From an uncultured Chloroflexia bacterium (GTDB taxonomy: Bacteria; Chloroflexota; Limnocylindria; Limnocylindrales; CSP1-4): a DNA stretch of 64,000 nucleotides. The DNA is taken from positions 1,312,001 through 1,376,000 of the forward strand of contig CAVPPB010000003.1 in the NCBI GenBank assembly GCA_963707215.1, written 5' to 3'. Below the pieces are notes generated by a model. That model was not told the DNA's origin, ran no database searches, and worked only from the letters and a program-made list of their open reading frames with translations. A program made the translations under genes and the position numbers. Positions within the stretch are counted from its first letter, which is position 1. Each line of letters begins with the position of its first letter. Below are positions 5,042-53,132 of the stretch, piece by piece.

Positions 5042-5044
5042 CGT

Positions 5045-6367: not shown

Positions 6368-6374
6368 CCGGGCC

Positions 6375-6421
6375 ATTCTAGCGGCCACCCGAGGCGGGGC
6401 CGGGCGACCGTCTGCTACGCT
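6375..6421. promoter_or_regulatory. Back-to-back -10 boxes for the divergent GT and wzm genes (probably leaderless)
   Basis: TAGAAT on the minus strand (6375-6380) 7 nt before ATG 6367; TGcTACGCT on the plus strand (6413-6421) 9 nt before ATG 6431. Confidence 0.6.
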
Positions 6422-6430
6422 CCGCCGCGC

Positions 6431-7279
6431 ATGTCCAGCCACTCGCAGGTCCGAACCTACCGGGCCGCCGAGCATCCCAACCCGTTCCAGCTCATCGCCC
6501 AGGGCTTCCGCGAGATCTGGTCGCGGCGCCGCCTGACGCGCTACCTGGTCCAGGCCGACCTCCACCGCCACGGCGCCGACACCATCCTCGGCAACATCTG
6601 GTGGGTGCTCGACCCGCTGCTCCAGATGATCGTCTACGTGATCCTCGTGTCGGTCATCTTCCAGCGCGCCACGGAGGATTACGCGCTCTTCGTCTTCGCG
6701 GCGATCCTGCCCTGGAAGTGGTTCTCGGCCAGCGTCAACGATTCGATCACCTCGGTCACGTCGCGCGAGCGGATCATCAAGCAGGTCAGCTTCCCCAAGA
6801 TCGTCCTGCCCGTCGCGGCGACCTCCAGCGGGATCGTCAGCTTCGCCTTCGGGATGATCCCGATGCTCGGGTTGATGCTCCTCTTCTACAGCGACCGGAT
6901 CAGTCTGTTCCTCCTGGTCATCCCGGCGGTCGCGGTCGTCCAGCTGGTCTTCACCCTGGCCATCGCCATCCTCGTCTCGGCCGTGAACGTGTTCTTCCGC
7001 GACGTCGGTAACGTCGCTCGTCACGGCCTGCGGATCTGGTTCTATCTCTCGCCCGGTCTCTACGGCCTCGACGCGCTGACCGGCAACCCGACCCTCCAGT
7101 CGCTGATGCGGTTGAACCCCTGGGCGACCATGTTCGAGTCCTACCGCGCCCTCATCTACTACGGGACCTGGCCGGACTGGGGCGCCCTGGCCATCCTGCT
7201 GGGCCTGTCCGTCCTCGGGCTTGGTGTCGCGATGGTCTTCTTCAAGCGGGTCGAGCCCGCCTTCGCCAAGGTCCTCTGA
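6431..7279 (+). CDS. ABC-2 polysaccharide/teichoic-acid exporter permease (Wzm/TagG-like)
   Basis: LGNIWWVLDPLLQM, multiple TM helices, FFRDV, WFYLSPGLY, LNPW, FFKRVEPAFAKVL. Confidence 0.92.
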   Translation: MSSHSQVRTYRAAEHPNPFQLIAQGFREIWSRRRLTRYLVQADLHRHGADTILGNIWWVLDPLLQMIVYVILVSVIFQRATEDYALFVFAAILPWKWFSASVNDSITSVTSRERIIKQVSFPKIVLPVAATSSGIVSFAFGMIPMLGLMLLFYSDRISLFLLVIPAVAVVQLVFTLAIAILVSAVNVFFRDVGNVARHGLRIWFYLSPGLYGLDALTGNPTLQSLMRLNPWATMFESYRALIYYGTWPDWGALAILLGLSVLGLGVAMVFFKRVEPAFAKVL

Positions 7280-8103
7280 TGAACGCCGCGACCGACGCCG
7301 ACACTGGGCCCGAGCTCGACTACGCGATCGACGTCCGCGGCCTGGGCATCCGCTACAACCTCCGCCTGACCCGCCGCACGACCGTCCGTGAGTCGTTCAA
7401 GAACGCCCTCCGCCGCTCCGAGGGTCCGACCCACTTCTGGGCCCTCCGGGACGTCACCTTCCGGGTCCCCCACGGCGAGACGCTGGCGGTCATCGGCCCG
7501 AACGGCGCGGGCAAGAGCACCCTCCTCCAGGTCCTCGCCGGGATCCTCCGGCCGAACGAGGGGCAGGTCGACGTGGTCGGCCAGGTGTCGAGCCTGCTGA
7601 CCCTCGGGGCGGGCTTCGATCAGGACCTCTCGGGCTTCGACAACATCCTGCTCGCCGGCGCCTTCCTCGGCATCGAGCACGAGGACATGGAGCGACGGCT
7701 CCCGGGCATCGTCGAGTTCGCCGGCCTGGGTCGCTTCATCGACGCCCCGATCAAGACCTACTCCTCGGGGATGCGGGCCCGGCTCGGCTTCTCGATCGCC
7801 ACGGCGGTCGATCCGGACGTGCTCATCATCGACGAGGTCCTGGCGACCGGCGACGCGGTCTTCCGGGAGAAGAGCAAGCACCGGATCATGGAGCTGACCC
7901 AGGCCGCCAAGGGCATCGTCATCGTGACCCACGACATGAGCTGGGTCCGCGAGTTCTGCAACCGGGCGCTGCTCCTCGACAGGGGCGGGATCGTCGCCAC
8001 CGGCGAGCCGGACGAGGTCGCCACGCTGCACGAGGAGCGCTCGGTCCGGGCCAAGGAGGCCCGCGAGGAGGAGCTCCGACGTCAGCTGGGGGCGGTGATC
8101 TAG
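7279..8103 (+). CDS. ABC polysaccharide exporter ATPase (Wzt/TagH-like, no C-terminal carbohydrate-binding domain)
   Basis: Walker A GPNGAGKST, signature YSSGMRARL, Walker B LIIDE, VTHD. Coupled to the permease by a TGATG overlap. Confidence 0.93.
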   Translation: MNAATDADTGPELDYAIDVRGLGIRYNLRLTRRTTVRESFKNALRRSEGPTHFWALRDVTFRVPHGETLAVIGPNGAGKSTLLQVLAGILRPNEGQVDVVGQVSSLLTLGAGFDQDLSGFDNILLAGAFLGIEHEDMERRLPGIVEFAGLGRFIDAPIKTYSSGMRARLGFSIATAVDPDVLIIDEVLATGDAVFREKSKHRIMELTQAAKGIVIVTHDMSWVREFCNRALLLDRGGIVATGEPDEVATLHEERSVRAKEAREEELRRQLGAVI

Positions 8104-9401
8104 CCGACCCGTTGCGGCGGAACGAGGTCGCGGACGGCCGCCAGGTACGGCCCGATGGCCGTCTCCCAGTTGTAGTGGTCGGCGGCCAGCCAGAGTGCCC
8201 GCGATCGCATCGCCTCGTAGGCGGCGGGCGGCTGGTCGAGGATGGTCGCCAGGGCCCGGGCAAGGTCGGTCGGGTCGGCCGGGTCGGCTGTCGCACCGAT
8301 CCGACCCGACTCGACGATGGTCCGCATCACCTCGAGGTCTCGCCCGACGACGATCGGGGTGCCGGCCGTGAGCGATTCCCAGAACTTGTTCGGGCTCGAG
8401 AGGCGCTGGTTGAGCGAGTCGGCCGGCACGGCGACGATCGACGCGTCGGCCGAGGCCGTCCAGGCCGGGACGTCATCGGGATGGACCGGGGGGAGGGTCA
8501 CGTGGCGACCGACGAAGCGCGGGTCTCGGTCGCGGTCGCGAAGGCGCTCGGCCCAGGCGCCGAAGCCGAGCACGACGAGGGCGGCGTCAGGCAGGCGAAG
8601 CACGGCCTCGGCGGCCTCGTCCAGGCCCCGGCCCGGCCCAAGGCGGCCCAGGAACAGGACGATCCGTCGTTCCGCGGGCAGGCCGACGGCGGCCCGGATC
8701 AGGTCCGGGCGGGGCTCCGGCGGGGCCCAGCGAGGCTGGCAGTTGAGCAGGACGAGGGGAGGTGGCAGGTCCCATCGGCGGGCCAGGTGGGCGGCCAGGG
8801 ATCCGTTCACCGTCACGACGAGGTCGGCCCGTCTCGCCCAGCGTCGTTCGCGAGCCCGGTACCAGGTCAACAGCGGTCCGGGCACCCGCTCGACGTTGTT
8901 CGAGTCGAGGATCGCATCCGTGACGTCGTAGACGACCCGCCCGGTTCGGCCGGCCCGGCGCGCACGCCGGGCCATCTCGATGGCGACCGGCACGGCCAGC
9001 ATCCCGCAGGCGTGGTACAGGTCGGCCGGCGCCAGCTCGGAACCCAGGGCCGCCCACCAGCCACGGGCCTGGGCAGGCCAGCCGATCCCCTTGAGGGCGA
9101 GGTCGCCGAGATCCGCGATCCGGCCGGCGCCGCGGCGGCTCGTCGGCGGACGCTCGGCCGTGAACCGGGCCCACGGGCCGGTCGGTCGATACCGGCGGAG
9201 GCGGACCGGGCCCTCGCTCTCCTCGACCGGCAGATCCGGACGTCCGACCGCGGCGATCTCGACGTCGTAGCCCTCGGAGGCCAGGCTGCGAGCCACGCGC
9301 AACCCGCGCGAGTACGGGGCAGCTGCGTTGCCGACGAGGACCACTGCCCGCGGAGCGGGTCTCGGCAGATGACCAGGACCGGTCGCCCGGGTGGTCACCA
9401 C
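8100..9401 (-). CDS. Glycosyltransferase family 4
   Basis: ADLYHAC, VVYDVTD, LFLGRL, SSPNKFWESLTAGTPIV. Confidence 0.88.
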   Translation of the reverse strand: MVTTRATGPGHLPRPAPRAVVLVGNAAAPYSRGLRVARSLASEGYDVEIAAVGRPDLPVEESEGPVRLRRYRPTGPWARFTAERPPTSRRGAGRIADLGDLALKGIGWPAQARGWWAALGSELAPADLYHACGMLAVPVAIEMARRARRAGRTGRVVYDVTDAILDSNNVERVPGPLLTWYRARERRWARRADLVVTVNGSLAAHLARRWDLPPPLVLLNCQPRWAPPEPRPDLIRAAVGLPAERRIVLFLGRLGPGRGLDEAAEAVLRLPDAALVVLGFGAWAERLRDRDRDPRFVGRHVTLPPVHPDDVPAWTASADASIVAVPADSLNQRLSSPNKFWESLTAGTPIVVGRDLEVMRTIVESGRIGATADPADPTDLARALATILDQPPAAYEAMRSRALWLAADHYNWETAIGPYLAAVRDLVPPQRVG

Positions 9402-10798
9402 GGCCGCCCCGTCAGCCGGCCGTACTCGGTCAGCAGCCCCGCCACCTGGGTCTCCCAGGTGTACCGCTCGTGGGCCACCCGGAGCGCCTCGGCCCGCCGA
9501 GCGGCTCGCTGCTCCGGGCCCTCGTCGAGGATCCGCCGGATGGCTGCCGCGATGGAGACCGGGTCGACCGGATCGCAGAGCTCGCCGGCGCCCTCGACGG
9601 CGATCGCGGCCATCCCCGGCAGGTCCGAGGCGACCGCGGGGACCCCGACGGCGATCGCCTCGAGCAGCTTGTTCGGGGTCGTCAGGCGGTGGTTCAGGGT
9701 CGTCGGCTGGATCGGCATCGCCGCGACGTCGGCCGCGGCCACCCAGTCCAGGAGCTCGGTCGGCGGGACCGCCGGCAACACGAAGGCCCGGCCGACCAGG
9801 TCCGGCTCGCTGACCCGCCGCTCGAGGTCGTCGGCCATCGTCCCGTAGCCCATCAGGACGAGGACCGCGTCCGATAGGAGGGGGACGGCCGCGAGGAGCT
9901 GCTCGATCCCGCGATGGGGCGAGAAGCCCCCGTGATAGAGGACGACGGCGACGTCAGCCGGGAGACCGAGCCGCTCGTGGAAGCGCCTGATCGGCGGATC
10001 CGGCGGGTCGGTCCGGTAGGCGCAGTTCATGACCACCAGCGGGAGGTCGACCGGCCAACGGGCGACCATCACGTCGGCGTACGGACGATTGACCGTGACG
10101 ATCCGGTCGGCGCGCCGCGCCCAGCCCCGCTCGAGGCGGCCCAGGATCGAGCGGACCGGGCCGGGCAGGCGGGCGAGGTTGGCTGCGTCGAGGTAGATGT
10201 CCCGGGCGTCATAGACGACGCGCGCCCCACGTCGCTTCGCGAGGTCCAGGGCTACCGGGATGCCCATGTAGGCCATCCCGTGGTAGAGATCGGCGCCCGG
10301 GTCCACCGTGCGGCTGGCACGCTGCTGAGCGCGGACGGTCAGCCCGATCGCCGCCATGCGCCGGGCGGATCCGATCACCCGGCGGAATCGCCAGGTGGCC
10401 GAGGCGCCGTCGGCCGGGCGGGGCTCTTGGGTCGGGGCGTCCCCCCCGGAGCCCGCGGTGGTGTTCGGACGGCGTCGTCGGGCCCTGTACCGCTCGAGCC
10501 GCTCGACGACGGCTCCGGGCAGCGGCAGGCCCGCCAGCGCCGACACGGGGACCCTCCGGATCCGATAGCCGGCCGGATGCTGCTCGTCGGCGGGGAGGTC
10601 GGGAGCGAGACGGGCGACGACGGTGACCTCGTGGCCACGGGCCGCGATCGACGAGGCGATGCGGTACGTCCGGGAATCGTGCTCGGCCGTGGTCGGCAGC
10701 ACCAAGGCCAGGCGCTGGCGGACCGGAGCGCCGTCGGCCTGCGCGGCTGCGGCCGGCGCGTCGCTCGTGTCCACGACCCCCACGCGGGTGGCGGTCAC
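9395..10798 (-). CDS. Glycosyltransferase family 4
   Basis: C-terminal part of ORF 9395..12106; GTG 10798 overlaps the upstream stop. DSRTYRIA, VVYDARD, YHGGF, TTPNKLLEAIAVGVP. Confidence 0.88.
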   Translation of the reverse strand: MTATRVGVVDTSDAPAAAAQADGAPVRQRLALVLPTTAEHDSRTYRIASSIAARGHEVTVVARLAPDLPADEQHPAGYRIRRVPVSALAGLPLPGAVVERLERYRARRRRPNTTAGSGGDAPTQEPRPADGASATWRFRRVIGSARRMAAIGLTVRAQQRASRTVDPGADLYHGMAYMGIPVALDLAKRRGARVVYDARDIYLDAANLARLPGPVRSILGRLERGWARRADRIVTVNRPYADVMVARWPVDLPLVVMNCAYRTDPPDPPIRRFHERLGLPADVAVVLYHGGFSPHRGIEQLLAAVPLLSDAVLVLMGYGTMADDLERRVSEPDLVGRAFVLPAVPPTELLDWVAAADVAAMPIQPTTLNHRLTTPNKLLEAIAVGVPAVASDLPGMAAIAVEGAGELCDPVDPVSIAAAIRRILDEGPEQRAARRAEALRVAHERYTWETQVAGLLTEYGRLTGRPW

Positions 10799-12084
10799 GC
10801 GGCCGGGCCCTCCCGCTCGAGGTCCGCGTACAGGGCGACGAGCCCGGCGACCTCGGCTTCCCAGTTCCAGCGCTCGCGTGCCGCCCGGCGGCAGCGCGCT
10901 CGCAGGTCCTCGCTCGCCTCGGCGGGCAGATCGAGCAGCGAGCGGATCGCGGCCGCGATGGCCGCCGGGTCGGTCGGGTCGCAGACCACCCCGAGCGGCC
11001 CATCCGGATCGTCGAGCAGCACGCCCCGGATGCCCGGGAAGTCGCTCGCCACCACCGGGATGCCCGCGGCGAGCGATTCGAAGAGCTTGTTGGGCGTCGA
11101 GAGGACGTAGTTGAGGGAGTCGGGCTGGAGCGCCAGCGCCTCGACATCCGCCGAGGCGACCCAGTCCACGACGTCCTCGGGCGGTACCGGGTCGAGGACG
11201 TGGACCCGCCCGCCGGCCCGTCGATCGGCGGCCCGCTCGACGAGGAGCTCCCGCAGCGGGCCGAAACCCAGGAAGGCCACGTGCACACCGGCAAGCTCCG
11301 GGCGCAGGGCGGCGTCGGCGAGCTGCTCCAGGCCCCGGTGAGCCCGGAAACCACCGTGGTGGAGGACGATCCGGTCGGCGGGTGGGATGTCGAGCGCCTC
11401 CCGGAGCCGATCGGACGGCACCGGGGCATCGGGCCGCCGCGGAGGGCAGTTGTGGACCACGACGACGCGGCCGATGCCGAGGCCGGGCCCCAGGCGCTCG
11501 GCAAGGGCCTGGTTGACCGTGACCAGAGCCACGGCCTCGGCTGCCCAGCGGCGTTCCTGGGCATCGATCCGGGCGATCGCCCAGGCCGGCCGGCCGACGA
11601 AGCTGCCCGAGCCGAGGAAGAGCTCGTGACTGTCGTACACGACCCGCCCGCCGTTCCGTCGGGCAGCCTCGACCGCAGCCGGGAGGCCGGTCAGGTCGTG
11701 GCCGTGGTAGACATCGGCCGGTGGGGCCGCTCGCGCAGCGGTCCGGGCCCAACCGAGGTTGCCCAGCCACCAGGCGGCCAGCCAGTCGAGCGTGTCGAGG
11801 CGTGCCGGGCCGTGGACGGCCGGTCGTGGCCGGATCCGCCGGGCGACCCATGCGGCCAGCCGCCATGGGGCCCGGATCCAGCGCCACCAGCGTCGGTAGC
11901 GGGGCAGGCGGACGCGGATGATCTCCAGGTCGTCGCGCTGGGTGCGCTCGAGGGCCCGGGGTGAGCCCGGATCGAGCGTTCCGACGATGGTCAGCCGATG
12001 GCCGGCGTCGCGGAGACTGGCTGCCTCCTTGAGGACCCGGGCGTCTGCCGACAGGTCGTTGCGGACGAACATGACGACCTTCAC
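10795..12084 (-). CDS. Glycosyltransferase family 4
   Basis: DARVLKEA, YHGHDL, VVYDSHE, STPNKLFESLAAGIPVVASD. Confidence 0.9.
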   Translation of the reverse strand: MKVVMFVRNDLSADARVLKEAASLRDAGHRLTIVGTLDPGSPRALERTQRDDLEIIRVRLPRYRRWWRWIRAPWRLAAWVARRIRPRPAVHGPARLDTLDWLAAWWLGNLGWARTAARAAPPADVYHGHDLTGLPAAVEAARRNGGRVVYDSHELFLGSGSFVGRPAWAIARIDAQERRWAAEAVALVTVNQALAERLGPGLGIGRVVVVHNCPPRRPDAPVPSDRLREALDIPPADRIVLHHGGFRAHRGLEQLADAALRPELAGVHVAFLGFGPLRELLVERAADRRAGGRVHVLDPVPPEDVVDWVASADVEALALQPDSLNYVLSTPNKLFESLAAGIPVVASDFPGIRGVLLDDPDGPLGVVCDPTDPAAIAAAIRSLLDLPAEASEDLRARCRRAARERWNWEAEVAGLVALYADLEREGPAA

Positions 12085-43014: not shown

Positions 43015-44793
43015 TCACTCCCACTCGATCGTGGCCGGTGGCTTGCTGCTGATGTCGTAGACGACCCGGTTGACCCCCGGGACCTCGTTGACGATCCGCG
43101 AGCTGATCTTGCCCAGGACGTCGTAGGGCACCTTGGCCCAATCGGCTGTCATCCCGTCTTCCGAGGTCACGGCCCGGATGGCCACGACGTTGGCGTAGGT
43201 CCGGCCGTCGCCCATGACCCCGACGCTGCGGACCGGGGTGAGGATCGCGAAGGACTGCCAGAGGCTTCGGTACAGGCCGGCCGCCTTCACCTCGTCGATC
43301 ACGATCCAGTCGGCCTCGCGGAGCGTGTCGAGCCGCTCGGCGGTGACCTCGCCGATGATCCGGATGGCCAGGCCGGGGCCCGGGAAGGGCTGACGGAGGA
43401 CCATCGCCTCGGGCAGGCGCAGCTCCAATCCGACGGCGCGGACCTCGTCTTTGAACAGGTAGCGGAGCGGCTCGATGAGCTTGAACCGCAGGTCCGCCGG
43501 AAGACCGCCGACATTGTGGTGGGTCTTGATCTTCTGGGCCGTCTTCGTCTCGGGTGCCGTCGATTCGATGACGTCCGGGTAGAGGGTCCCCTGGGTCAGG
43601 AAATCGATCCGCCCCAGCTTCGCAGCCTCTTCTTCGAAGACCCGGATGAACTCGTCGCCGATGATCCGCCGCTTCTGCTCGGGGTCGACGATCCCGGCCA
43701 GACGGGCCAGGAAGCGCTCGCGAGCGTCCACCATGACGAGGCGCATCCCGAGGTTCTGTTCGAAGGTGACCCGGAGCAGCTCCGACTCCTTCTTGCGCAT
43801 CAGGCCGTGGTCGACGTAGATGCAGGTCAACCGGTCGCCGACAGCCTGGTGGACCAGCGTCGCCGCGACGGCCGAGTCCACGCCGCCCGAGAGCGCGCAA
43901 ATGACGCGTCCGTCGGACCCGGTCGCGGCAGCGTGCGCGTCCACCCGCTCGCGGATCTCGGCGACGGTCGTCTCGATGAAGTCGGTGGCGGTCCAGGTCG
44001 GCGGGATGTCGGCGATGCCATTGACGAAGTTGCGGAGCAGCTCCCGGCCCCGCGGGGTGTGGACCACCTCGGGGTGGAACTGGATGCCGTACAACCCGCG
44101 CTCCGGGGCGGCCAGGCCGGCATACGGCGTGGAGTCCGTCTGGGCGGTCGCGTGGAACCCCTCGGGCAGCCGGGTGATCGAATCGCCGTGGCTCATCCAG
44201 ACCGGCTGGTCGCGGTCGAGGCCGGCGAACAGCCCGTCATCGCGGGTGACGGTGACGGTCGCCGGGCCGTACTCGCGCTTGGCGGTCGGCATCACGTCGC
44301 CACCGAGCTCGATGGCCATGAGCTGGGCGCCGTAGCAGATGCCCAGCACCGGCAGGCGGCCGCTCCAGAGCGCCGGGTCCGATCGGGGCGCGCCTTCGTC
44401 GTAGACCGAGTTCGGGCCGCCCGAGAGGATCACCGCCCGCACCCCACGGCGCTCGAGCTCGGCCACCGGGGTGTCGTGGGGCAGCAGCTCCGAGTAGACG
44501 TTGAGCTCGCGGACGCGGCGGGCGATGAGCTGGCTGAACTGGCTGCCGAAGTCCAGGACGGCGACGCTGGCCCGTTCCTCGGCGAGCGGCGCCATGGGCG
44601 GCCGGTCGGCCGTCGAGCGCTCCGGCGGCGGGGCCTTGAGGGCGGTCTCGAGGTAGGCCTCGACCTCCGCGTCGTCGGGCGCCAGGACCCGGTGGCCGGC
44701 GTTGGCCGGCTCACCGTGGACCGTCTTGCCGCGGTCGCCCGGTGGGCCGGCGGGTCGGTCCGCGGACTGCTGTGACTCCTCGGTCTCGGCCAA
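43015..44793 (-). CDS. guaA: GMP synthase (glutamine-hydrolysing)
   Basis: [63 protein letters not shown] 44793 follows AGGAGG. Confidence 0.97.
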
Positions 44794-44861
44794 CGGCCCC
44801 TCCTGGCGTGCGTTCGCACAGAGTCTACCGGCCGAGGAGGCCAAGGGAGACGAGGGCAGGG

Positions 44862-45212
44862 TCAGGCGCCCGCTGGCCGCAAACGGAAGGCGGGACCGCG
44901 CCCCAGCCCCTCCGACGGCGTGCCGTAGCGGAGGATCAGGGCCGTGACCGCCCGCGCGGCCTCGACCGTGTCCAGCGGCTCGGCGACCGCCTCCCAGGTC
45001 CGCTCGCCGACCGTGACGGTGCAATGAGGATGGGCCTCGAGGTTGCGGGCCCAGTCGGCCTTGGGGCCGCCGGCCGCCACGAGCAGGCTTCCGTCGGACT
45101 CCTCGACGAAGCCGACGGCCGCCGGGATCTCCCGGCCGCTGACGCGGCCCCGGGTCACGATCCGGGCGACCTTCCCCCAGCCGACCAGCTGGGTACCGAT
45201 CTCGTCCGTCAG
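44862..45212 (-). CDS. Deazaflavin (F420)-dependent nitroreductase family protein
   Basis: [27 protein letters not shown]. The frame is open back to a CTG overlapping the guaB3 stop; first GTG at 45158. Confidence 0.8.
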
Positions 45213-46387
45213 CGGCCTCGCTGCCAGGACTTGCCCTCGGTGGCGACCGACGGGGCGTAGACCATCTCGACACGCTGCATCTCGGCGATCGTCCGGGCGC
45301 CGAGGGCGGCCATCGACTGGCGCAGCGCCCCGACGAGGTTCTCCGAGCCATCGGTCACCCCGGCCGGCCCGAAGAGGACCCGCTCCAGCGGCCCGCCGGT
45401 CCCGACCTTGATCCGGGTCCCGCGCGGCAGCACCGGCGAGGGCGCGGCCATGCCCCAGTTGGTGCCCTGGCCGGGTGCCTCCTCGGCCCGCGCGAGCGGC
45501 GAGCCGAGCATGACCGCGTCGGCACCGGCGGCGATGGCCTTGGCGATCTCGCCACCGTGGCGCATCCCGCCGTCGGCGACGACGGGGACGTACCGGCCGG
45601 TCTCGGCGAGGTAGACGTCGCGGGCCCCGGCCACGTCGCTCACGGCGCTCACCTGGGGCACCCCGATGCCCAGGACCTCGCGGGTCGTGCAGGCGGCCCC
45701 CGGGCCGACGCCGACGAACACGGCAGCGGCCCCCTGCTCCATCAGGGCGAAGGCGGCCTCGGCGTTGGTCGTGTTGCCGACGGCGACCGGGATGGGCATC
45801 CGGGCGGTGAACTCGGCCAGCTCCAGCGGCTCGTACCCGGAGGCGAGATGGCGGGCGCTCGAGACCTGCGACTGGACGAGGAACAGGTCTGCGCCCTGCT
45901 CGGCGCAGAAGGTGCCCCAGCGGAGGGCGGCTCCGGGGGTCGCTGCGAGGAAGGCTGGCGAGCCGCCGGCGTGGAGCTCCTCGATCCGACGGGTGACGAG
46001 CTCCTCGCGGATCGGCGCCTGGTAGGCGTCGGCCAGGACGTCGTGGACCTCGGCGTCGGGGGCGGAGGCGATCCTGGCCAGCACGGCTGACGGGTCGTCG
46101 TAGCGAGTCTGGACGCCCTCGAGGTTGAGGACCGCCAGGCCACCCAGCCTGGCAAGCTCACCGGCCAGGCGAACGTCCACCGCGGCGTCCATCGCCGCAC
46201 CGATGAAGGGGATGGCCAGCGGGAGGCCACAGAAGGTCTGGGCCAGGTCGACGTCCGAGGGCTCGACCGTGCTGGTGCCGGGCGCCAGCGACACGTCGTC
46301 GAACCCGTAGGTCGGGCGGATGCCATCCACCTTCGAGCGGAAGGTCCGCCGGGCCGCAGCCGTCGCGGCCTGGGACTGGTCGAGCAA
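45209..46387 (-). CDS. guaB3: GuaB3-type IMP dehydrogenase family protein (no CBS domains)
   Basis: [50 protein letters not shown]. Confidence 0.9.
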
Positions 46388-46463: not shown

Positions 46464-46964
46464 TCAGCGGACGACGCGCTCGCCGTCGAGCGTCGTCTCG
46501 AGCCAGCGCGCTCGCTCGACGTCCAGCGGGATAGCAGCCACCCGTTCGATCGCCTCGCGGTAGGCCGGCCAGACGGCCAGCCGGACCGCCTCGCCCGGAT
46601 CGGCCCAGCGCGCCGCGTCGTGCTCGTCGGAGATCCGCGGCTCGACCCCCGCGCGGACCCAGGCGGCGAAGACCACCTCGGCCAGGACCGCGTCGACCCC
46701 GGGCCAGTGGAACATGCTCACGAGGTCGAGGTCGTAGAAGGTCGTGACCTCATCGGGCCCGAAGCCCGTCTCCTCGGCCAGCTCGCGGACGGCGGCCGCG
46801 GCCACTCGCTCGCCCGGCTCGATCGAGCCGGTCACGCACTGCCAGAGCCCGGCCAGCTGGCGGCCCGGACCGCGGCGAAGGAGGAGGATCTCGGTCGTCG
46901 AGGGATCGGTCGGATCCGGCACCCGGAAGACCCAGACGGCGACGAGGTCGGGGCGGAGCGGCAT
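46464..46964 (-). CDS. NUDIX hydrolase (NudB/dATP pyrophosphohydrolase-like)
   Basis: LLLRR, WQCVTGSIEPGE...AAVRELAEETG Nudix box, EHDAARW. Confidence 0.9.
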   Translation of the reverse strand: MPLRPDLVAVWVFRVPDPTDPSTTEILLLRRGPGRQLAGLWQCVTGSIEPGERVAAAAVRELAEETGFGPDEVTTFYDLDLVSMFHWPGVDAVLAEVVFAAWVRAGVEPRISDEHDAARWADPGEAVRLAVWPAYREAIERVAAIPLDVERARWLETTLDGERVVR

Positions 46965-47587
46965 CAGTCGCTTGCCGCGGCGACCGCGGGCGGTCCGTTC
47001 GACGATGCCGCCGCCAGCCGGGACTCGATCGCCTCGAGCTGCTCCAGGTGCATGAGGTCGTGGACGCCGGCGAAGAGGAGCCACTCGCCGCAGCGCAGCC
47101 GACCCACCAGCGGATGATCAAGCGGGCACGGGTCGGTCTCGTGGCCGGCCACCGAGCGGGCGGCCCGGGTGACGATCCGCTGGCTCGTCGCGAGGTGGGC
47201 GAGGATCGAGGCCCGGTCGGCATCGGCCCGGCCCGGCACACCGGGGACGACCGTCGGGGCCTCGGCCGGGAAGCGGCCCTGGGCGGCCAGTGAGGCGGCC
47301 ATCGCCAGGCCGGCCCGGGCGTCGGCGTCGTGGCCGAGCGCCTCGGTGACGCTCCAGTCCGCCTCGCCGCCCGGCAGCCCGAACGCCTCGTCCGGCAGCG
47401 CCTCGACGACCTCGGCCAGGGCCTGGGCCACGGCGGCGAGCTGGCCGGCCAAGCCCGGCGCGGTCCCCTCCCCCGCCCGGCGGCGGACCTCGCGCCGGAG
47501 TCCGATCGGTCGACCCTCCTCGAGCGCCCGCCAGCAGGCCACGACGTCCGGGGCCGTCGACTCGAGAGCCGCCATCCGGTCGTTCAT
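46964..47587 (-). CDS. DinB family protein
   Basis: WSVTEALGH, HPLVG, HDLMHLEQL His triad pattern. Confidence 0.82.
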   Translation of the reverse strand: MNDRMAALESTAPDVVACWRALEEGRPIGLRREVRRRAGEGTAPGLAGQLAAVAQALAEVVEALPDEAFGLPGGEADWSVTEALGHDADARAGLAMAASLAAQGRFPAEAPTVVPGVPGRADADRASILAHLATSQRIVTRAARSVAGHETDPCPLDHPLVGRLRCGEWLLFAGVHDLMHLEQLEAIESRLAAASSNGPPAVAAASD

Positions 47588-47593
47588 GGCTCC

Positions 47594-47665
47594 AGCCTAC
47601 GCGAGCCCGTCGGGGCACGTGAGGGCCGGTCGGCATCGGACGGCGGGCGCGGCCCGGGTGATAAT
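47594..47665. promoter_or_regulatory. Divergent -10 boxes for the DinB-family gene and the four-gene operon
   Basis: TAGGCT on the minus strand (47594-47599) 6 nt before ATG 47587; GATAAT on the plus strand (47660-47665) 9 nt before ATG 47675. Confidence 0.55.
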
Positions 47666-47674
47666 CCCGGCACG

Positions 47675-48517
47675 ATGTCGAGCGAGCCGTTCCGCTACCC
47701 GGACCTCATGGGCCGACTTCGCAGCGAGGGGCTCGTGCGGGTCTTCACCCACGGGCGCGGCGGCCCGCTGACCTTCCTGCTCGTGCTGGGGACCGGCATC
47801 CTGGCCGTCCCGCTGTCGGCGCCGTTGCTCGCCGTCGCCTACGCGGCAGCCTGCGCCCTCCTCTACATCCCCATCGTTCGCGGGGCGATGACGGACCCGG
47901 CCATCCAGCGGGAGCTCCTGACCCAGGCGATCGCCGAGCGCTTCCCGGCCGACGACATCGCCACCCCATCACGTCGGTCGGCCGTCGAGTCGTCGGTGGG
48001 GATCCTGGCCGAGATCGCCCTGCGCATCCACGAGGTCGAGCGTGGCGGGCCCACGGCTGCCCGGGCGCGTGCCGCGTTCGCCGATGCCGCCGGCCTGGTG
48101 GACCTCCAGCGCGAGTCGGCCCTCCAGGCGGAATCGCTCGAGCGCGTGCTGGCCATCGTCGAGCGCAACGACCCCGCGGACGCGGCGTCTACCCGAGGGA
48201 AGGCGGACGCGGAGACCGCGTCGCCGGCCCAGCGGCTGCGCCAGCAGAACATCGATGCCGTGCGTGGGGAGGCCACAGCCGCCGACGAGCTCATCGTGAC
48301 CATCGGCCAGCGCCTGGAGACCATCCTCCTCCAGACGTCGCAGATCGACCGGGAGACCATCGACATCGTGCGAACCGACGAAGCTGTCCGCGAATCGGGC
48401 GAGGCCGTGCAGCGCCTCCAGGACGTCGTGGAGTCGCGGCGTCGCGCCGCCGACCGCCTCATCTCGGTGCTCGGCACCGAGGACGAGGCCGGCACCCTCG
48501 ATCGGGTCGGGTCGTGA
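47675..48517 (+). CDS. Hypothetical protein with two TM helices and a long helical/coiled-coil domain (first gene of the four-gene operon)
   Basis: ATG 47675 lies 9 nt after GATAAT. Hydrophobic LTFLLVLGTGILAV and LLAVAYAAACALLYIPIV are followed by E/R/A/Q-rich helices. Confidence 0.8.
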   Translation: MSSEPFRYPDLMGRLRSEGLVRVFTHGRGGPLTFLLVLGTGILAVPLSAPLLAVAYAAACALLYIPIVRGAMTDPAIQRELLTQAIAERFPADDIATPSRRSAVESSVGILAEIALRIHEVERGGPTAARARAAFADAAGLVDLQRESALQAESLERVLAIVERNDPADAASTRGKADAETASPAQRLRQQNIDAVRGEATAADELIVTIGQRLETILLQTSQIDRETIDIVRTDEAVRESGEAVQRLQDVVESRRRAADRLISVLGTEDEAGTLDRVGS

Positions 48518-48545
48518 CGACCCGCTCCAGCGAAAGGACGGACCC

Positions 48546-50345
48546 ATGAACCGGAACCGCTCCCTGTGGATCTGGGGTGCCGCGATCCTGCTGGTCATCT
48601 TCGTCTTCGCCGCCGTGATCGGCCGGCTGGTGGATTCGGCCGACGTCGGCGAGCCCGGGGCGACCGATGGCGCTGCCGCGAGCAGCGGCCCGACGACCCC
48701 GCCGAACGCCGTCGGCATCTCGATCGTCAGCTCAAACACCAAGGAGGCCTGGCTGCACCAGGCCGTCGAGGCCTTCAATGCCGCGGCGCCCGGCGACCCG
48801 GACCTCCAGGTGGACGGCAAGCCGATCTTCGTGACCATCGTCCAGGAGGAGGTCGACGGCAAGGTCGCCGACTACCGCTCGGGCACCATGGTCGCCGACA
48901 CCCTGAGCGGCAAGATCGAGCCGACGATCCTGTCGCCGGGCGAGGAATCCTGGGTCCAGAAGTTCGAGCGCGACTGGGAGAGCGCCAAGGGCGGCGACCC
49001 GGTCTCCGAGGCCCAGCCGCCGATCCTCGTCCGGACCCCGCTCGTCGTCGCCATGTGGCAGTCCCGCGCCGAGGCGCTGGGCTGCTGGCCGACCCCCGGC
49101 CCGGACTGCACCTGGGCCCGCCTCGGCGCCCTGGCCAGCGATCCGGAAGGCTGGGGCTCGGTCGGCGAACCCCAGTGGAAGAAGTTCAAGTTCGGCTACG
49201 GCTACTTCGGCGAGTCCAACTCGGGCACGCTGGCGACCGTGGCCATGTGCATGACCGCCCTGGGCAAGACCGAGGGACTCGTCGTCGCCGACGTCAGCTC
49301 CGACAACGCCTGCGGTGAGTTCATCCACGAGATCGAGAAGGCCAAGGTCCACAGCGGCAAGTCGGACGTCTTCCTGCTCGACCAGATGGAGACCGGCGGG
49401 CCCGAGTACCTCGACGGGGTCGTGACCTACGAGTCGAACGTCATCGCCCGCAACCGGGCGGTCGGCGACCAGCTGCGCGAGCCGCTCGTCTCGTTCTACC
49501 CGCAGGACGGCACCGTCGTCGTCGGGCACCCCTTCGCCATCCTCGACGGCGCTCCCTGGGTCAGCGACGAGCAGGCCCGGGCCGCCCAGGCCTTCGGCGA
49601 CTACCTGCTCTCGGACGAGCAGCAGCGGGCGGTCCTGGAGCTCGGGCTCCGGCCGGCCGACGCCGACACGGCCCTGGGCTCGCCGATCGAGCTCGGCAAC
49701 GGCGCCAACCCCGAGGCGACGCTGCTCGCCTTGACGTTGCCGGACACGCTGACGATCGAGCGCGTCGGCGAGGCCTGGCAGGACGTCCGCAAGCATGCGG
49801 TCATCGCCATCGTCTTCGACAAGTCGGGAAGCATGTCGGGCGGCAAGATCACCGCCGCCGTGAAGGGCGCCCAGGAGTTCGTCCGCAAGATGAGCCCCCA
49901 GGACGAGCTGCTCTGGATCCCCTTCGACGAGCAGGTCTACCCGGGCGTCCGGGGCACCAAGGCGGCGGTCGGCGAGGACCTCATCGGGGACATCGCGGCG
50001 ACCGTCGCCGACGGCGGGACGGCCCTCTACGACGCCATCCTGCTGGCTCGCGACGAGCTCGAGGAGCGTCGGTCGGAGACGGGCGATACGGTACGCTACG
50101 GCATCGTGGTGCTCTCCGACGGACAGGACCAGAACAGCGTCCGGACCCTGTCCGAGCTGGAGTCGGCCCTGGCCACCACCGAGGCGGACCCGACCGGCAT
50201 CCAGATCCACACCATCGGCATCGGCGAGGACGCGGACACGCCGACGCTGAAGAAGATCGCCCAGGCCGCCCACGGGCGGTTCTGGCAGCCGAAGAGCGAG
50301 GCGGACGTGGTCACCGTCTACAAGGACATCGCCGCGTACTTCTAG
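48546..50345 (+). CDS. Membrane-anchored extracellular solute-binding-like protein fused to a C-terminal vWA domain
   Basis: AAAGGA RBS, N-terminal TM, SBP-like motifs (TPLVVAMW, SNSG, YES, YPQDGT...HP, FGDYL), MIDAS DKSGS...GGTALYD...LSDG, IHTIGIG. Confidence 0.9.
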   Translation: MNRNRSLWIWGAAILLVIFVFAAVIGRLVDSADVGEPGATDGAAASSGPTTPPNAVGISIVSSNTKEAWLHQAVEAFNAAAPGDPDLQVDGKPIFVTIVQEEVDGKVADYRSGTMVADTLSGKIEPTILSPGEESWVQKFERDWESAKGGDPVSEAQPPILVRTPLVVAMWQSRAEALGCWPTPGPDCTWARLGALASDPEGWGSVGEPQWKKFKFGYGYFGESNSGTLATVAMCMTALGKTEGLVVADVSSDNACGEFIHEIEKAKVHSGKSDVFLLDQMETGGPEYLDGVVTYESNVIARNRAVGDQLREPLVSFYPQDGTVVVGHPFAILDGAPWVSDEQARAAQAFGDYLLSDEQQRAVLELGLRPADADTALGSPIELGNGANPEATLLALTLPDTLTIERVGEAWQDVRKHAVIAIVFDKSGSMSGGKITAAVKGAQEFVRKMSPQDELLWIPFDEQVYPGVRGTKAAVGEDLIGDIAATVADGGTALYDAILLARDELEERRSETGDTVRYGIVVLSDGQDQNSVRTLSELESALATTEADPTGIQIHTIGIGEDADTPTLKKIAQAAHGRFWQPKSEADVVTVYKDIAAYF

Positions 50346-50360
50346 GACATCGTCCGGCCG

Positions 50361-50380
50361 CCGGGCGGGTCGCCGCCCGG
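50361..50380 (+). other. Intra-operon GC-rich stem-loop
   Basis: CCGGGCGG-GTCG-CCGCCCGG, a perfect 8-bp stem with no U-tract. Confidence 0.45.
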
Positions 50381-50409
50381 ACGTCGGGCGCAGGAGCTGA
50401 GGGACGGGC

Positions 50410-51273
50410 ATGGGACGCTTCTTCGCCGCCATCCGGCGCTGGTTCGACTACTTCTTCCTGCGTCGCAGCGAGGACGTCCGCAACGCCGCCGATCGGCAGT
50501 TCACCGGCTCCGTGGAGGGCATCCAGGCGGCCTACGCGGTCGACCGTGACCGGCTCTCCAAGGACTTCCGCAGCCTCCAGGAGGCGGTCGCCCAGGTCCT
50601 GACGATCGCCGAGGACAAGAAGATCCAGCTCGAGCGGCTCGGCACCGAGGAGGGGCAGCTCCAGCTCCAGCTCAACGGGGCCATCAACGCCGCCGAGAAG
50701 GCCCAGGCCGACGGCGACGCCGACGGCTTCGCCCAGGCCAAGGCCGCCTATGTCCGCTACCAGGCCCGGATGACCCAGATCGACGCCGACCAGGAGCGCC
50801 TGACCACCGAGGTGGGGAACCTCGAGGCGAGCATGAAGACCCACATGTCCCGCCTGACCGCCTTCCAGGCGGAGCTTGACCGGCTGCCCCGCGAGGAGGC
50901 CGAGACGATCGCCGAGTACGTCTCGGCCAAGCAGGTCATCGAGCTCAACAACCGCCTGATGAACGCCTACGACAGCCTCCAGGAAGGGCCGTCGAGCGTC
51001 GTCCGGGCGGAGGTTCGGAAGATGTCCGCCCAGGCCCGGATCACCGAGCAGCTCGCCGGCACCGACGTCAAGCTGCAGGACCAGCAGTACGCTCAGCTGG
51101 GTCGGGAGCTCGCTGGCGAGGATTCGCTCGAGGCCGTGCTGGCCGCCCGGCGAGCCGAGCGGGAGGGGCCGACCGCCGAGGCGGTCGCCGAGCGGGAGGC
51201 ACCCGCGGTCGATGCGGCCCCGCCGGCCGATGCCGCGGACGGACCGCCACCGCCCGAGCGCCCCCGGATCTGA
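50410..51273 (+). CDS. Divergent PspA/IM30 (ESCRT-III superfamily)-like coiled-coil protein
   Basis: Amphipathic N-terminus MGRFFAAIRRWFDYFF, long heptad-rich helical hairpin with turn near AEKAQADGDADGFAQA, short C-terminal helices and a Pro/Ala/acidic tail. Architecture recognised by eye. Confidence 0.72.
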   Translation: MGRFFAAIRRWFDYFFLRRSEDVRNAADRQFTGSVEGIQAAYAVDRDRLSKDFRSLQEAVAQVLTIAEDKKIQLERLGTEEGQLQLQLNGAINAAEKAQADGDADGFAQAKAAYVRYQARMTQIDADQERLTTEVGNLEASMKTHMSRLTAFQAELDRLPREEAETIAEYVSAKQVIELNNRLMNAYDSLQEGPSSVVRAEVRKMSAQARITEQLAGTDVKLQDQQYAQLGRELAGEDSLEAVLAARRAEREGPTAEAVAEREAPAVDAAPPADAADGPPPPERPRI

Positions 51274-51296
51274 CGGCACCCGGACCGACGATCCGC

Positions 51297-53132
51297 GTGG
51301 CCGGCAAGCAGGCAGGCCGAGGCAGCGACGAGCGCCGTCCCGGCTTCATCGAGGAGCTCTCGCGGGCCCACTACGCTCGCCTGGCCCGCTGCATCGTCCT
51401 CAGCGGCAACACCAACGACCTCTTCCCCGTCGGGCCGGCCGATGCTTCGCGCTACGTCAGCCTGGAGGCCGTCCTGGCCGATGCCTTCGGGCGAGCCCGC
51501 TACCCGCGCCGCGGCGGCGAGGTCCCGTTCGTCGTCCTGACGCTCAAGGCCGGCGGCATCGTCTTCGCCAGCGACGCGGACCGGGCGGCCATCGCGGCCA
51601 TCGGCACGGCCGCCGGCGATCGCCATCCCGGGCTGGCACGGGACGTCGCCACGTTCCTGCGCGAGGTCACCAGGGAGCGGGCCGCGTCGCTCGTCACCCT
51701 CACCCTGGTCGCCGAGCTGATGCGGCTCGTCAGCCGGGCTCGCGAGGCCGGCATCCCGGTCCGCCCGGTCGCCGCGATCATCGACCACGCCGAGGCGCTG
51801 CTGCCGGCCGGTGACCTGGCCCGCCTCGCCCCGGTCGACCGCGAGGCCATCACGATCTTCAGCGACCTGCTGCGCGACGACGCGATCTGGGCCGAGGCCG
51901 CGACGGCCGATGCCTACCCCGACGTCGTCCTGCTCATCGCCCCGACCGTCGCCGAGCTCTCGACGCGCATCGCCGAGCTGCCCAAGACGGCCCGGGTCGA
52001 GGTCCCTCGACCCGACGAAGCGCTCCGGCGGTCATTCGTCGACGACCGGTTGGCCGCGCTCGGGCCGGGCGTGGCCGGGCTCGGCGAGGACTACCCGGTG
52101 GAGGGGCTCGTTCGGGACGCCAAGGGCCTGACGCTGCGCGACCTCGACGACCTGCTCACCGCCGCCCAGCGCTCGCCCGAGCAGTTCCGGATCGACCGCG
52201 ACGCAGTCGTCGCCATCGTCAACCGCACCCTCCAGGAGCGGCTCGGCTCGATCATCACGGTGGTCTACCCGGAGCACTCGATGGCCGACGTGGTCGGCTT
52301 CGCTGCCCTGAAGCGGCGCCTCGGCAGGCTCCGCCGCCGCTTCGACGATCCGGAGCGAGCGCCGGCCGGCATCACCGTCGTGGGTCCCAACGGCGCCGGC
52401 AAGACGTTCATCCTGGAGGCCTTCGCCCGGGACACCGACCGCACGGTCATCACCCTCGGCCAGATCCGCTCGGAGTGGTACGGCCGGACCGACGTCTTCG
52501 CCGAGGCCTTCAGCTCGGGCCTGGCAGCCTTCGGCCGGATCCTCGTCGTCGTCGACGAGGCCCACGTCGCGTTCGGCTCGATGCATGACCGCCAGACCCA
52601 CGAGACCGAGGCACGGCTGGCCAGCCACATGATCCGGATGATCGACGACCTGCCGAACCGCAGCCGGATCGTCTGGGCTCTCATCACGACCCGGCCGGAC
52701 CTGCTGGACCCGGACTTCGTTCGCGCCGGCCGCTGTTCCCTGTTCGTCCCCATCTTCGACCCGGAAGGCGACGATGCGTCCGCCTTCGTCGACCTGATGG
52801 CCGGGCGGCTCCTGCGCAGCGGGGTCCGCCTGACCCCGGAGGAGCGCGCCCTCCTCGAGGAGCGGTCGGCCGGCTTCTCGGCCGGCGACTACCGGGAGTT
52901 CGCCGACGACTTCGCCGACGAGCGCGATTTCGACCCTGGCGTCTCGCTGGCTACCTACCTCGACGGCTGGACGCCGAGCTCGGTCGCCCTGGGTGTCCAG
53001 CGCGAGCTCCAGATCCTCCTCGCCGCGCTGCACTGCGACTGGCCGGAACTCCTGCCGGAGCGGCTGCGGGGCCGCTCGAAGGCGGCCATCCAGGAAGGGA
53101 TCGACCGGCTGCGGAGCGTGCTGGCGCCCTGA
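51297..53132 (+). CDS. Classical-clade AAA+ ATPase with a degenerate N-terminal AAA-like domain
   Basis: Walker A GPNGAGKT, pore loop IRSEWYG, Walker B LVVVDE, SRH TTRPDLLDPDFVRAGR, GFSAGD. The N-half has IVLSGNTND and IIDHAE remnants. Confidence 0.9.
   Translation: MAGKQAGRGSDERRPGFIEELSRAHYARLARCIVLSGNTNDLFPVGPADASRYVSLEAVLADAFGRARYPRRGGEVPFVVLTLKAGGIVFASDADRAAIAAIGTAAGDRHPGLARDVATFLREVTRERAASLVTLTLVAELMRLVSRAREAGIPVRPVAAIIDHAEALLPAGDLARLAPVDREAITIFSDLLRDDAIWAEAATADAYPDVVLLIAPTVAELSTRIAELPKTARVEVPRPDEALRRSFVDDRLAALGPGVAGLGEDYPVEGLVRDAKGLTLRDLDDLLTAAQRSPEQFRIDRDAVVAIVNRTLQERLGSIITVVYPEHSMADVVGFAALKRRLGRLRRRFDDPERAPAGITVVGPNGAGKTFILEAFARDTDRTVITLGQIRSEWYGRTDVFAEAFSSGLAAFGRILVVVDEAHVAFGSMHDRQTHETEARLASHMIRMIDDLPNRSRIVWALITTRPDLLDPDFVRAGRCSLFVPIFDPEGDDASAFVDLMAGRLLRSGVRLTPEERALLEERSAGFSAGDYREFADDFADERDFDPGVSLATYLDGWTPSSVALGVQRELQILLAALHCDWPELLPERLRGRSKAAIQEGIDRLRSVLAP

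Follow-up and report, generated by a model that had tools for sequence, protein, structure and literature searches.

The closest described relatives of the locus reported here come from a 2024 survey (PMC11237479, [quoted passage not shown]), section 18 of which describes PspA together with a protein of two AAA+ domains whose N-terminal copy is inactive, as well as homologues that bear transmembrane (TM) segments. The same section of the survey reports longer operons with ATP-binding cassette (ABC) and PBPB+OmpA genes, and it interprets these as ATP-dependent, Snf7/Vps4-like remodelling systems. According to other papers, a Vps4-like ATPase appears absent in bacteria and the disassembly of PspA/Vipp1 polymers is an open question (PMC7619361), full ESCRT systems are restricted to archaea and eukaryotes, with Vps4 derived from Cdc48 by the loss of one domain (PMC10936438), genes for VWA, TerD and ABC proteins lie near pspA in huge phages (2026 preprint, 10.64898/2026.10.24.761521), and MoxR-vWA pairs belong to another ATPase clade (PMC5898192). 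Here we analyse a 64,000-nt stretch of DNA (the window) from an uncultured Chloroflexia bacterium (GCA_963707215.1, contig CAVPPB010000003.1), in which positions 47675-53132 hold a cassette of four genes for a putative membrane protein (gene 1), a solute-binding protein (SBP) fused to a von Willebrand factor A (vWA) domain (gene 2), a PspA-like protein (gene 3) and a tandem AAA ATPase (gene 4). The cassette is real, conserved and rare, and it is a variant of a kind of system that published work has already predicted.

The cassette can be compared with the survey's system as section 18 presents it. Both have a PspA homologue beside a two-AAA+ ATPase with an inactive first domain, a TM-bearing helical partner, a link to SBPs and a remodelling interpretation, and SBP+OmpA and ABC genes occur in two loci of distant gene-3 relatives (L012, L013). 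The window differs in having an SBP_bac_11+vWA fusion instead of PBPB+OmpA, in having no ABC transporter and in having a TM partner without Snf7/PspA likeness. The survey's examples (AEY64321.1, OGG56892.1) can be likened to our proteins by their description there, and we infer from this that the same families are involved. An original prediction made from the letters of this DNA had allowed that PspA-AAA gene pairs might already be noted, as section 18 bears out; its further claim that the system was without precedent in the literature was too strong. Neither "vWA" nor "von Willebrand" occurs even once in the main text of PMC11237479 or of PMC9239133 (the supplements of the former might list these families or a vWA partner), and a look-up of terms in the main text of PMC9239133 found no mention of an AAA partner.

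Three things are new here: the motor is a tandem AAA protein of Cdc48 type with an apparently dead D1, a second genome has the 2-TM and SBP-vWA genes behind a canonical pspA, and distant PspA-like relatives are again accompanied by SBP, vWA and 2-TM parts. The recurring core is therefore a PspA-type protein with a TM adaptor and an extracytoplasmic SBP/vWA binder, and the tandem AAA protein is an add-on to the divergent PspA branch. The features on which the argument draws are as follows, in the coordinates of the window.

47660-47665, + strand: GATAAT, a -10-like hexamer 9 nt ahead of the gene-1 ATG; read from the sequence, weak
47675-48517, + strand: gene 1 (P0001), 280 aa; short basic N-terminus, predicted TM hairpin and cytoplasmic domain of about 210 aa (hydropathy, starts of homologues)
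47765-47878, + strand: predicted TM hairpin of gene 1, aa 31-68 (Kyte-Doolittle block at aa 29-72)
48546-50345, + strand: gene 2 (P0002), 599 aa; predicted TM anchor at the N-terminus, with SBP and vWA domains following on the extracytoplasmic side (Pfam; hydropathy block at aa 4-35)
48723-49679, + strand: solute-binding domain of gene 2, aa 60-378 (SBP_bac_11, E 2.8e-10; SBP_bac_8, E 8.4e-7)
49803-50303, + strand: vWA domain of gene 2, aa 420-586 (VWA, E 5.5e-13)
50410-51273, + strand: gene 3 (P0003), 287 aa; putative divergent PspA/IM30-family protein of the ESCRT-III superfamily (family profile, model)
50413-50466, + strand: putative amphipathic helix alpha-0 of gene 3, aa 2-19 (hydrophobic moment 0.53, net charge +2)
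51256-51270, + strand: ERPRI, the extreme C-terminus of gene 3 after a disordered linker (family alignment)
51297-53132, + strand: gene 4 (P0004), 611 aa; tandem AAA protein with degenerate D1, D2 with intact motifs and a C-terminal helical domain (AlphaFold 2 model, Foldseek, profile)
51336-52286, + strand: D1 of gene 4, aa 14-330; AAA fold without Walker A or B
52287-52931, + strand: D2 of gene 4, aa 331-545; intact classical AAA domain (PF00004, motif conservation)
52383-52406, + strand: Walker A of D2, GPNGAGKT (alignment)
52476-52484, + strand: pore loop of D2, W394-Y395-G396 (alignment)
within 52545-52565, + strand: Walker B of D2, D420/E421 (alignment)
52722-52739, + strand: arginines R476/R479 of D2 (alignment)
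52932-53129, + strand: C-terminal helical extension of gene 4, aa 546-611 (conservation; helices in model)

The assignment of gene 3 depends on comparisons between families. An exhaustive HMMER search shows its family to be small: of 1.84 billion cluster representatives, 193 match at E<=0.001, and at E<=1e-30 there are 24. A word-indexed search gave 130 relatives, which carry the source labels "phage shock protein A" or "chromosome segregation ATPase", and 84 of these make up the family profile and alignment. When this profile is compared with the PDB, the top eight of 256 matches are all Vipp1/PspA (E 1.5e-8 to 2.4e-6), and unrelated coiled coils follow from 1e-4. Profile and Vipp1 align colinearly along about 200 residues (Vipp1 31-216), and Vipp1 has a 14-residue gap at a place where the gene-3 family is longer. 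PF04012 is matched by 14 of the 84 relatives (best E 1.1e-13), and hhalign places the profile colinearly on a canonical PspA from another Chloroflexota genome (G140) over 186 columns (E 2.9e-4). At profile level, we read gene 3 as a putative divergent member of the PspA/IM30 branch of the ESCRT-III superfamily. The label "PspA-like" that the 287-aa protein had been given is thus visible in the profile of its family and not in a Pfam search with the protein alone. A PF04012 search of the host genome (84.8% complete) had no match, so no canonical pspA was found there.

The AlphaFold 2 model of gene 3 is all helical (mean predicted local distance difference test, pLDDT, 81), with helices at residues 2-32, 35-101, 104-190 and 194-252 and then a disordered tail. 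The helices at 35-101 and 104-190, followed by that at 194-252, agree with the PspA/IM30 arrangement of an alpha1-alpha2/3 hairpin with alpha4 and alpha5 after it, and Vipp1 (6zvr) comes first in a Foldseek search, though weakly (E 1.5e-3). Residues 2-19 are aromatic and basic (rich in F, W and R), relatives have similar heads, and this segment is likely the membrane-binding helix alpha-0. At the other end, the model is disordered at aa 256-272, and the terminal motif [DE]RPx[ILVMF] closes 26 of the 84 relatives (30 of 84 if the first position is left free, RPx[ILVMF]). The same ending is found in gene-3 relatives that have no AAA+ neighbour (L012, L013, L015), and therefore the partner of the motif need not be the ATPase.

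Gene 4 had been called a classical-clade AAA+ protein, which its aromatic pore loop and the single AAA domain found by Pfam (PF00004 at aa 360-482, E 2.7e-14) uphold, and a degenerate AAA domain in its first 330 residues had been overlooked. Its AlphaFold 2 model (pLDDT 86.6; predicted template modelling score, pTM, 0.81) matches Rix7, VCP/p97, Cdc48, NVL and AFG2 over 580-690 columns (Foldseek, E about 1e-18 to 1e-16). The family counts 45 other proteins at E<=0.001, and motifs were compared in an alignment of 23 sequences. The ATPase profile matches VAT/p97/Cdc48 (E about 1e-34) in two stretches, one of which runs from the D1 lid into D2, and residues 233-320 align to the D1 lid of VAT. D1 alone finds no match among PDB sequences. 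At its Walker A site D1 has LSGNTNDLF (aa 35-43), of which G37, N38 and D41 are invariant in the 23 sequences, and at its Walker B site IIDHAE (aa 161-166). D1 is therefore predicted from its motifs to be dead and unable to bind ATP. D2 keeps all the motifs of a substrate-threading unfoldase, each invariant or nearly so in the same alignment, and is predicted to be active. The C-terminal extension, which falls into no assigned family, has a kept stretch of its own, W..PS...RELQ.LLAAL.C.W.ELLP.

The Vps4 likeness proposed for this ATPase did not survive as a family assignment. The protein has two AAA domains, Pfam finds no MIT family in it (its N-terminal 330 residues model as an AAA fold), and the nearest PDB matches of D2 alone are VAT/p97/Cdc48, followed by Msp1, with no Vps4 among the best 60 of 110 matches. 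NCBIfam likewise scores CDC48 (3.6e-11) ahead of CdvC (5.1e-6). Hydropathy shows no TM segment in gene 4. Sequence and model together describe it as a Cdc48-like tandem AAA protein, predicted to be cytoplasmic, whose architecture is not that of Vps4. As a mode of action the Vps4 analogy is reasonable, but the protein fails as a member of the Vps4 family.

Other systems can be set beside these two genes. As in ESCRT-III/Vps4, a gene for a polymer-type protein lies just upstream of one for a classical AAA protein with an aromatic pore loop, and gene 3 has a disordered tail with a short conserved end motif. In contrast to ESCRT-III/Vps4, gene 4 has two AAA domains, no MIT domain and a closer likeness to Cdc48/VAT than to Vps4/CdvC, gene 3 belongs to the PspA branch and not to Snf7, and there are no winged-helix, ESCRT-II-like genes. 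The whole gene-4 chain superposes on the D1+D2 of the type II classical AAA unfoldases Cdc48/p97/VAT, Rix7/NVL and AFG2 with the D2 motifs kept; unlike Cdc48/p97/VAT, however, it has no N-terminal double-psi barrel and starts with D1, its D1 lacks Walker A and B, and it has the additional kept C-terminal helical domain. The archaeal Halo_adaptin/Meth_adaptin loci, as described in PMC10936438, also have a weakly PspA-like protein upstream of a MIT-less, Vps4-like ATPase with Cdc48/VAT features, and some include an SBP (ProX). They differ in having a single ATPase domain with VAT-N, and winged-helix and adaptin-like proteins.

Gene 2 was correctly described in the original prediction as an SBP+vWA protein with a membrane anchor, which the Pfam matches and the hydrophobic block listed above confirm. 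Its metal ion-dependent adhesion site (MIDAS) is intact, with DxSxS at aa 425-429, T492 and D525, and the motif is kept in seven of the eight SBP-vWA proteins compared. Gene 2 is thus predicted to expose its SBP domain, together with a vWA domain that depends on metal, to the cell exterior. The MoxR-vWA pairs differ on both counts: gene 4 is of the classical clade (PF00004), and the gene-2 vWA domain would lie outside the cell rather than in the cytoplasm.

The two TM segments expected of gene 1 are also borne out, since the hydrophobic block at aa 29-72 can be read as a TM hairpin. Gene 1 has no match in Pfam, NCBIfam or PADLOC, and its family profile has none in the PDB. Among 400 other Chloroflexota genomes the family is found in two (G349 and G140, both of whose sequences were used in the search model), each time beside a PspA-type gene and a homologue of gene 2. 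Gene 1 is less conserved than genes 2-4 in G349 (42% vs 67-70% identity). We propose that gene 1 is the membrane partner of the PspA-like protein. One candidate identity for gene 1, PspM/Rv2743c, came from a language-model lead only (rank 20, with the family in 12% of cluster members) and was rejected; Pfam finds no match at E<=1 in any of 10 gene-1 family members. A connection to TelA had also been suggested and was not found, as neither PF05816 nor any other TelA family matches gene 1 or gene 3.

In Psp and Lia systems, the small membrane partner is thought to hold or release the PspA-family effector at the membrane. The cassette resembles PspFABC of E. coli, LiaIH of B. subtilis and PspA-PspM/Rv2743c of M. 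tuberculosis in pairing a PspA-family effector with a small membrane partner. It differs from them in that none of the four proteins has a PspB, PspC, PspF, LiaI or PspM family match, in that the cassette has no transcription factor, and in having an external SBP-vWA protein and an AAA unfoldase in addition.

All four genes are co-oriented on the + strand with gaps of 28, 64 and 23 nt, and their flanks are on the opposite strand, just as originally described. They also travel together, as had been expected. The four genes are in order and open in three further loci (L003, L005 and L016, the last from G349) at 42-85% identity, with 42%, 67%, 70% and 68% for genes 1-4 in G349. A fourth locus (L004) has the same gene order, with its gene-1 and gene-2 homologues each in two frames (4288-5101 and 5161-6943); these frame changes are either decaying genes or assembly indels. 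Two cut loci (L002 and L006) contain as much of the cassette as fits. The cassette occurs in two types of flank, MFS/MaoC in the window and L002, and purH...metG in L003, L004 and L016, while the short L005 shows metG downstream only. (Flanks were compared by picking open reading frames (ORFs) and searching Pfam, as tblastx is uninformative in G+C-rich DNA.) The same four genes stand in two different flanks; therefore, the cassette is the unit, and it is inherited as one.

Its spread is narrow. Gene 3 is found in one of 400 other Chloroflexota genomes (G349) and in one of 23 in the family, and the ATPase D1 in two of 400 (G349 and G379). SBP-vWA proteins like gene 2 occur in 63 of 400, a count that includes the unpublished G272. 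In 12 of the 45 other ATPase-family clusters, the "longest contig" has the same length as that of a gene-3-family cluster, down to 46%/54% identity, which is an indirect sign of association.

Relatives outside the cassette show which parts recur. On contig C25 of G140 (a genome 99% complete), a canonical PspA gene (PF04012, E 1.5e-23) is followed by a full-length homologue of gene 1 (31% identity, E 4e-19) and then by one of gene 2 (56%). Elsewhere in this genome (L051, G140:C34:18000-31000, - strand), another canonical PspA gene (8474-9175; PF04012, E 1.9e-43) is followed after 12 nt by a gene for a polytopic membrane protein of 1480 aa (4019-8461) with about 15 hydrophobic segments, an internal repeat and SBP+vWA at its end. 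Distant metagenomic relatives of gene 3 (about 40% identity) adjoin genes for an NMT1-SBP+OmpA protein, a vWA lipoprotein, an OmpA protein and a 2-TM helical protein, and these loci also encode another SBP, an ABC permease and an ABC ATPase.

The SBP-vWA family is also found in other company. In G111 (L040, G111:C1:3686000-3702000, 6946-8733 and 8874-11294, - strand), an SBP_bac_11+vWA protein adjoins an 806-aa kinase made up of a zinc-ribbon, a Ser/Thr kinase and SBP_bac_11. About 12 genomes of one family have the same pair of matches with a frame of about 800 aa alongside, the Pfam check covering G111. This pairing suggests that the SBP-vWA family may be a general outside sensor with differing inside outputs.

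We assign a probability of roughly 0.55 to the reading that the four genes form one envelope module around a divergent PspA/IM30 protein and work as follows. Gene 2 would sense some state of the exterior (a solute, a metal-dependent ligand or wall contact) and signal it by way of its TM helix to the gene-1 TM hairpin, and the cytoplasmic domain of gene 1 would then recruit or release the PspA-like protein. This protein may polymerise on the inner face of the membrane and so seal or reshape it. A hexamer of the ATPase would thread PspA-like subunits through the D2 pore, dismantling and recycling the polymer in the way that Vps4 treats ESCRT-III; the docking site may be the dead D1 or the C-terminal domain. 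The cassette is a compact and tractable four-gene candidate for ATP-driven turnover of a PspA-type polymer, with an unusual outside-facing sensor, and if the proposed steps are true, it would show how bacteria regulate ESCRT-III-like polymers and would bear on the origin of Vps4. A bolder version is tentative and, in our estimate, rather doubtful: that this is a bacterial ESCRT-III-type machine with a dedicated motor, in which a tandem AAA unfoldase that descends from Cdc48, and whose dead D1 now serves for docking, recycles a polymer of the PspA branch. Such a machine might have arisen in parallel with the proposed archaeal Cdc48-to-Vps4 transition or preserve a stage like it, and it might be switched from outside by the metal-dependent vWA/SBP protein via the 2-TM adaptor, aiming sealing or vesicle release at a disturbed spot of the envelope.

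Several results weigh against the envelope module. P0003 by itself matches no Pfam family at E<=0.1, PF04012 included. In the Foldseek search of its model, Vipp1 accounts for nine of the 46 rows listed and the others are generic coiled coils, and the fold match to Vipp1 is no better than that to other long coiled coils; the PspA assignment therefore rests on sequence profiles. Gene 1 was considered as a TM-anchored Snf7/PspA protein and this was rejected (hhalign against the gene-3 profile, probability 0.2%), and its comparison with the 2-TM proteins of the distant loci detected no convincing likeness, with a BLASTP E of 0.29 and an hhalign probability of 1.2% (E 0.042), the latter over the last 45 residues only. 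The AAA+ protein, which had been taken for a constant part, is not one: G140, at 99% completeness, has no P0004-type D1, so its gene-1 and gene-2 homologues accompany a canonical PspA without an AAA+ protein. Among the distant loci, L012 and L015 have no AAA+ gene downstream of the PspA-like gene, and L013 ends at that gene. Conversely, the ATPase homologue of G379 (L020, G379:C176, 8703-10517, - strand, 604 aa, 53% identity) lies between a Rieske-type oxygenase gene and a 2-oxoglutarate (2OG)-oxygenase-like fragment at the contig end, labels which are a reading of the translations, not a family search. It has no PspA-like neighbour; G379 (80% complete) has no gene-3-family match, and a canonical PspA is present elsewhere in it. 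None of 11 other SBP-vWA loci in Chloroflexota has a PspA-like or gene-1-like gene within 1.5 kb. Scans of the window for two-hexamer consensus promoters and for terminators returned 0 sites each, and "operon" therefore rests on spacing and kept gene order, not on signals or RNA. Finally, the contacts among the four proteins and the action of the ATPase on the PspA-like polymer are points that we only infer. A complex prediction for genes 3 and 4 scored 0.09 against a mark of 0.32, which is evidence neither way.

Four other explanations deserve weighing. The ATPase might extract or unfold membrane proteins (gene 1, gene 2 or damaged neighbours) in the manner of Msp1/ATAD1, FtsH or Cdc48, with the PspA-like protein merely shielding the membrane. 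We consider this unlikely, but it has points in its favour: D2 taken by itself also matches both Msp1 and the outer mitochondrial TM-helix translocase (E about 1e-10) and has Cdc48/VAT-type unfoldases, not Vps4, as its best matches, the ATPase lacks a MIT domain, and gene 1 changes more quickly than the other genes (42% vs 67-70% in G349). However, the ATPase has no TM segment of its own, it shares contigs with the divergent PspA-like family (indirect evidence), and homologues of genes 1 and 2 stand beside a canonical PspA without it. Ranked after it, and unlikely as well, is that the module is chiefly a solute-sensing or uptake accessory, in which a nutrient or osmolyte is the ligand of the SBP, the PspA-like protein stabilises the membrane near a transporter whose genes lie elsewhere, and remodelling is secondary. 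The window's cassette has neither permease nor ABC ATPase, its SBP is fused to a vWA domain and held by a single TM anchor, and the SBP-vWA relatives beside a Ser/Thr kinase with an SBP ectodomain point to sensing, not uptake. These facts stand against an array of transport associations: distant gene-3 relatives inside ABC-transporter operons (NMT1-type SBPs, permease, ABC ATPase), a solute-transport link proposed in section 18 of PMC11237479, the ProX SBP in archaeal ESCRT loci in PMC10936438, and ABC systems adjoining 15 phage pspA genes in the preprint 10.64898/2026.10.24.761521.

An anti-phage or conflict system, with infection setting off a membrane response through the AAA+ protein and a receptor-like vWA protein at the surface, strikes us as very improbable. 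PspA was originally named for phage stress, and both the very patchy spread (gene 3 in 1/400 genomes of the phylum and 1/23 in the family) and the two genomic contexts of the cassette would suit such a role, but PADLOC matches are only weak coiled-coil or P-loop noise, the cassette has no nuclease, toxin or other effector, no defence genes were seen among the neighbours, and neither plasmids (searched with P0003 and P0004) nor viral contigs (P0003 and P0334) gave a match. Least credible of all is that gene 3 is a generic coiled coil and that the four genes are neighbours without a common function. Against it, Vipp1/PspA supplies the eight best PDB matches of the family profile, at least three orders of magnitude ahead of other coiled coils, and the four genes keep their order in another genomic context at identities as low as 42-70%; in its favour are the blank Pfam result for gene 3 itself, the label "chromosome segregation ATPase" being as frequent as "phage shock protein A" among relatives, and the many unrelated coiled coils returned by the fold search.

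The setting of the cassette is as follows. The host genome is 3.26 Mb and 84.8% complete, with a local G+C of about 0.70-0.76, and its nearest public relatives carry the label Candidatus Limnocylindrales, Chloroflexota. The - strand genes upstream of the cassette are DinB_2, NUDIX and IMPDH-like, and those downstream are MFS, MaoC and a c-di-AMP receptor. Three of the cassette genes are listed as + strand ORFs at 48546-50345 (599 aa), 50410-51273 (287 aa) and 51297-53132 (611 aa, GTG start). For gene 1 a longer ORF is listed (47330-48517), and the internal ATG at 47675 is the start common to 15 aligned homologues. The "own -10 box" claimed for the cassette is only the GATAAT hexamer at 47660-47665, and the two-hexamer scan does not support it. 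If used as a -10, it would leave the gene-1 mRNA with little or no leader. Gene 2 has a Shine-Dalgarno-like AAGGA upstream of it.

Between genes 2 and 3 there is a G+C-rich hairpin at 50351-50390 (-36.5 kcal/mol for a 73-nt stretch), which is no better than shuffled sequence (z -1.27). On the - strand at 46464-47587, the listed NUDIX and DinB_2 ORFs overlap by about 120 nt (46964-47084), so one start was probably called too far upstream. Also on the - strand, a 778-aa ORF at 43015-45351 has about 250 low-complexity, R/P-rich residues followed by GMP-synthase-like sequence (a label from reading the translation, not from a family search), and its true start is probably internal.

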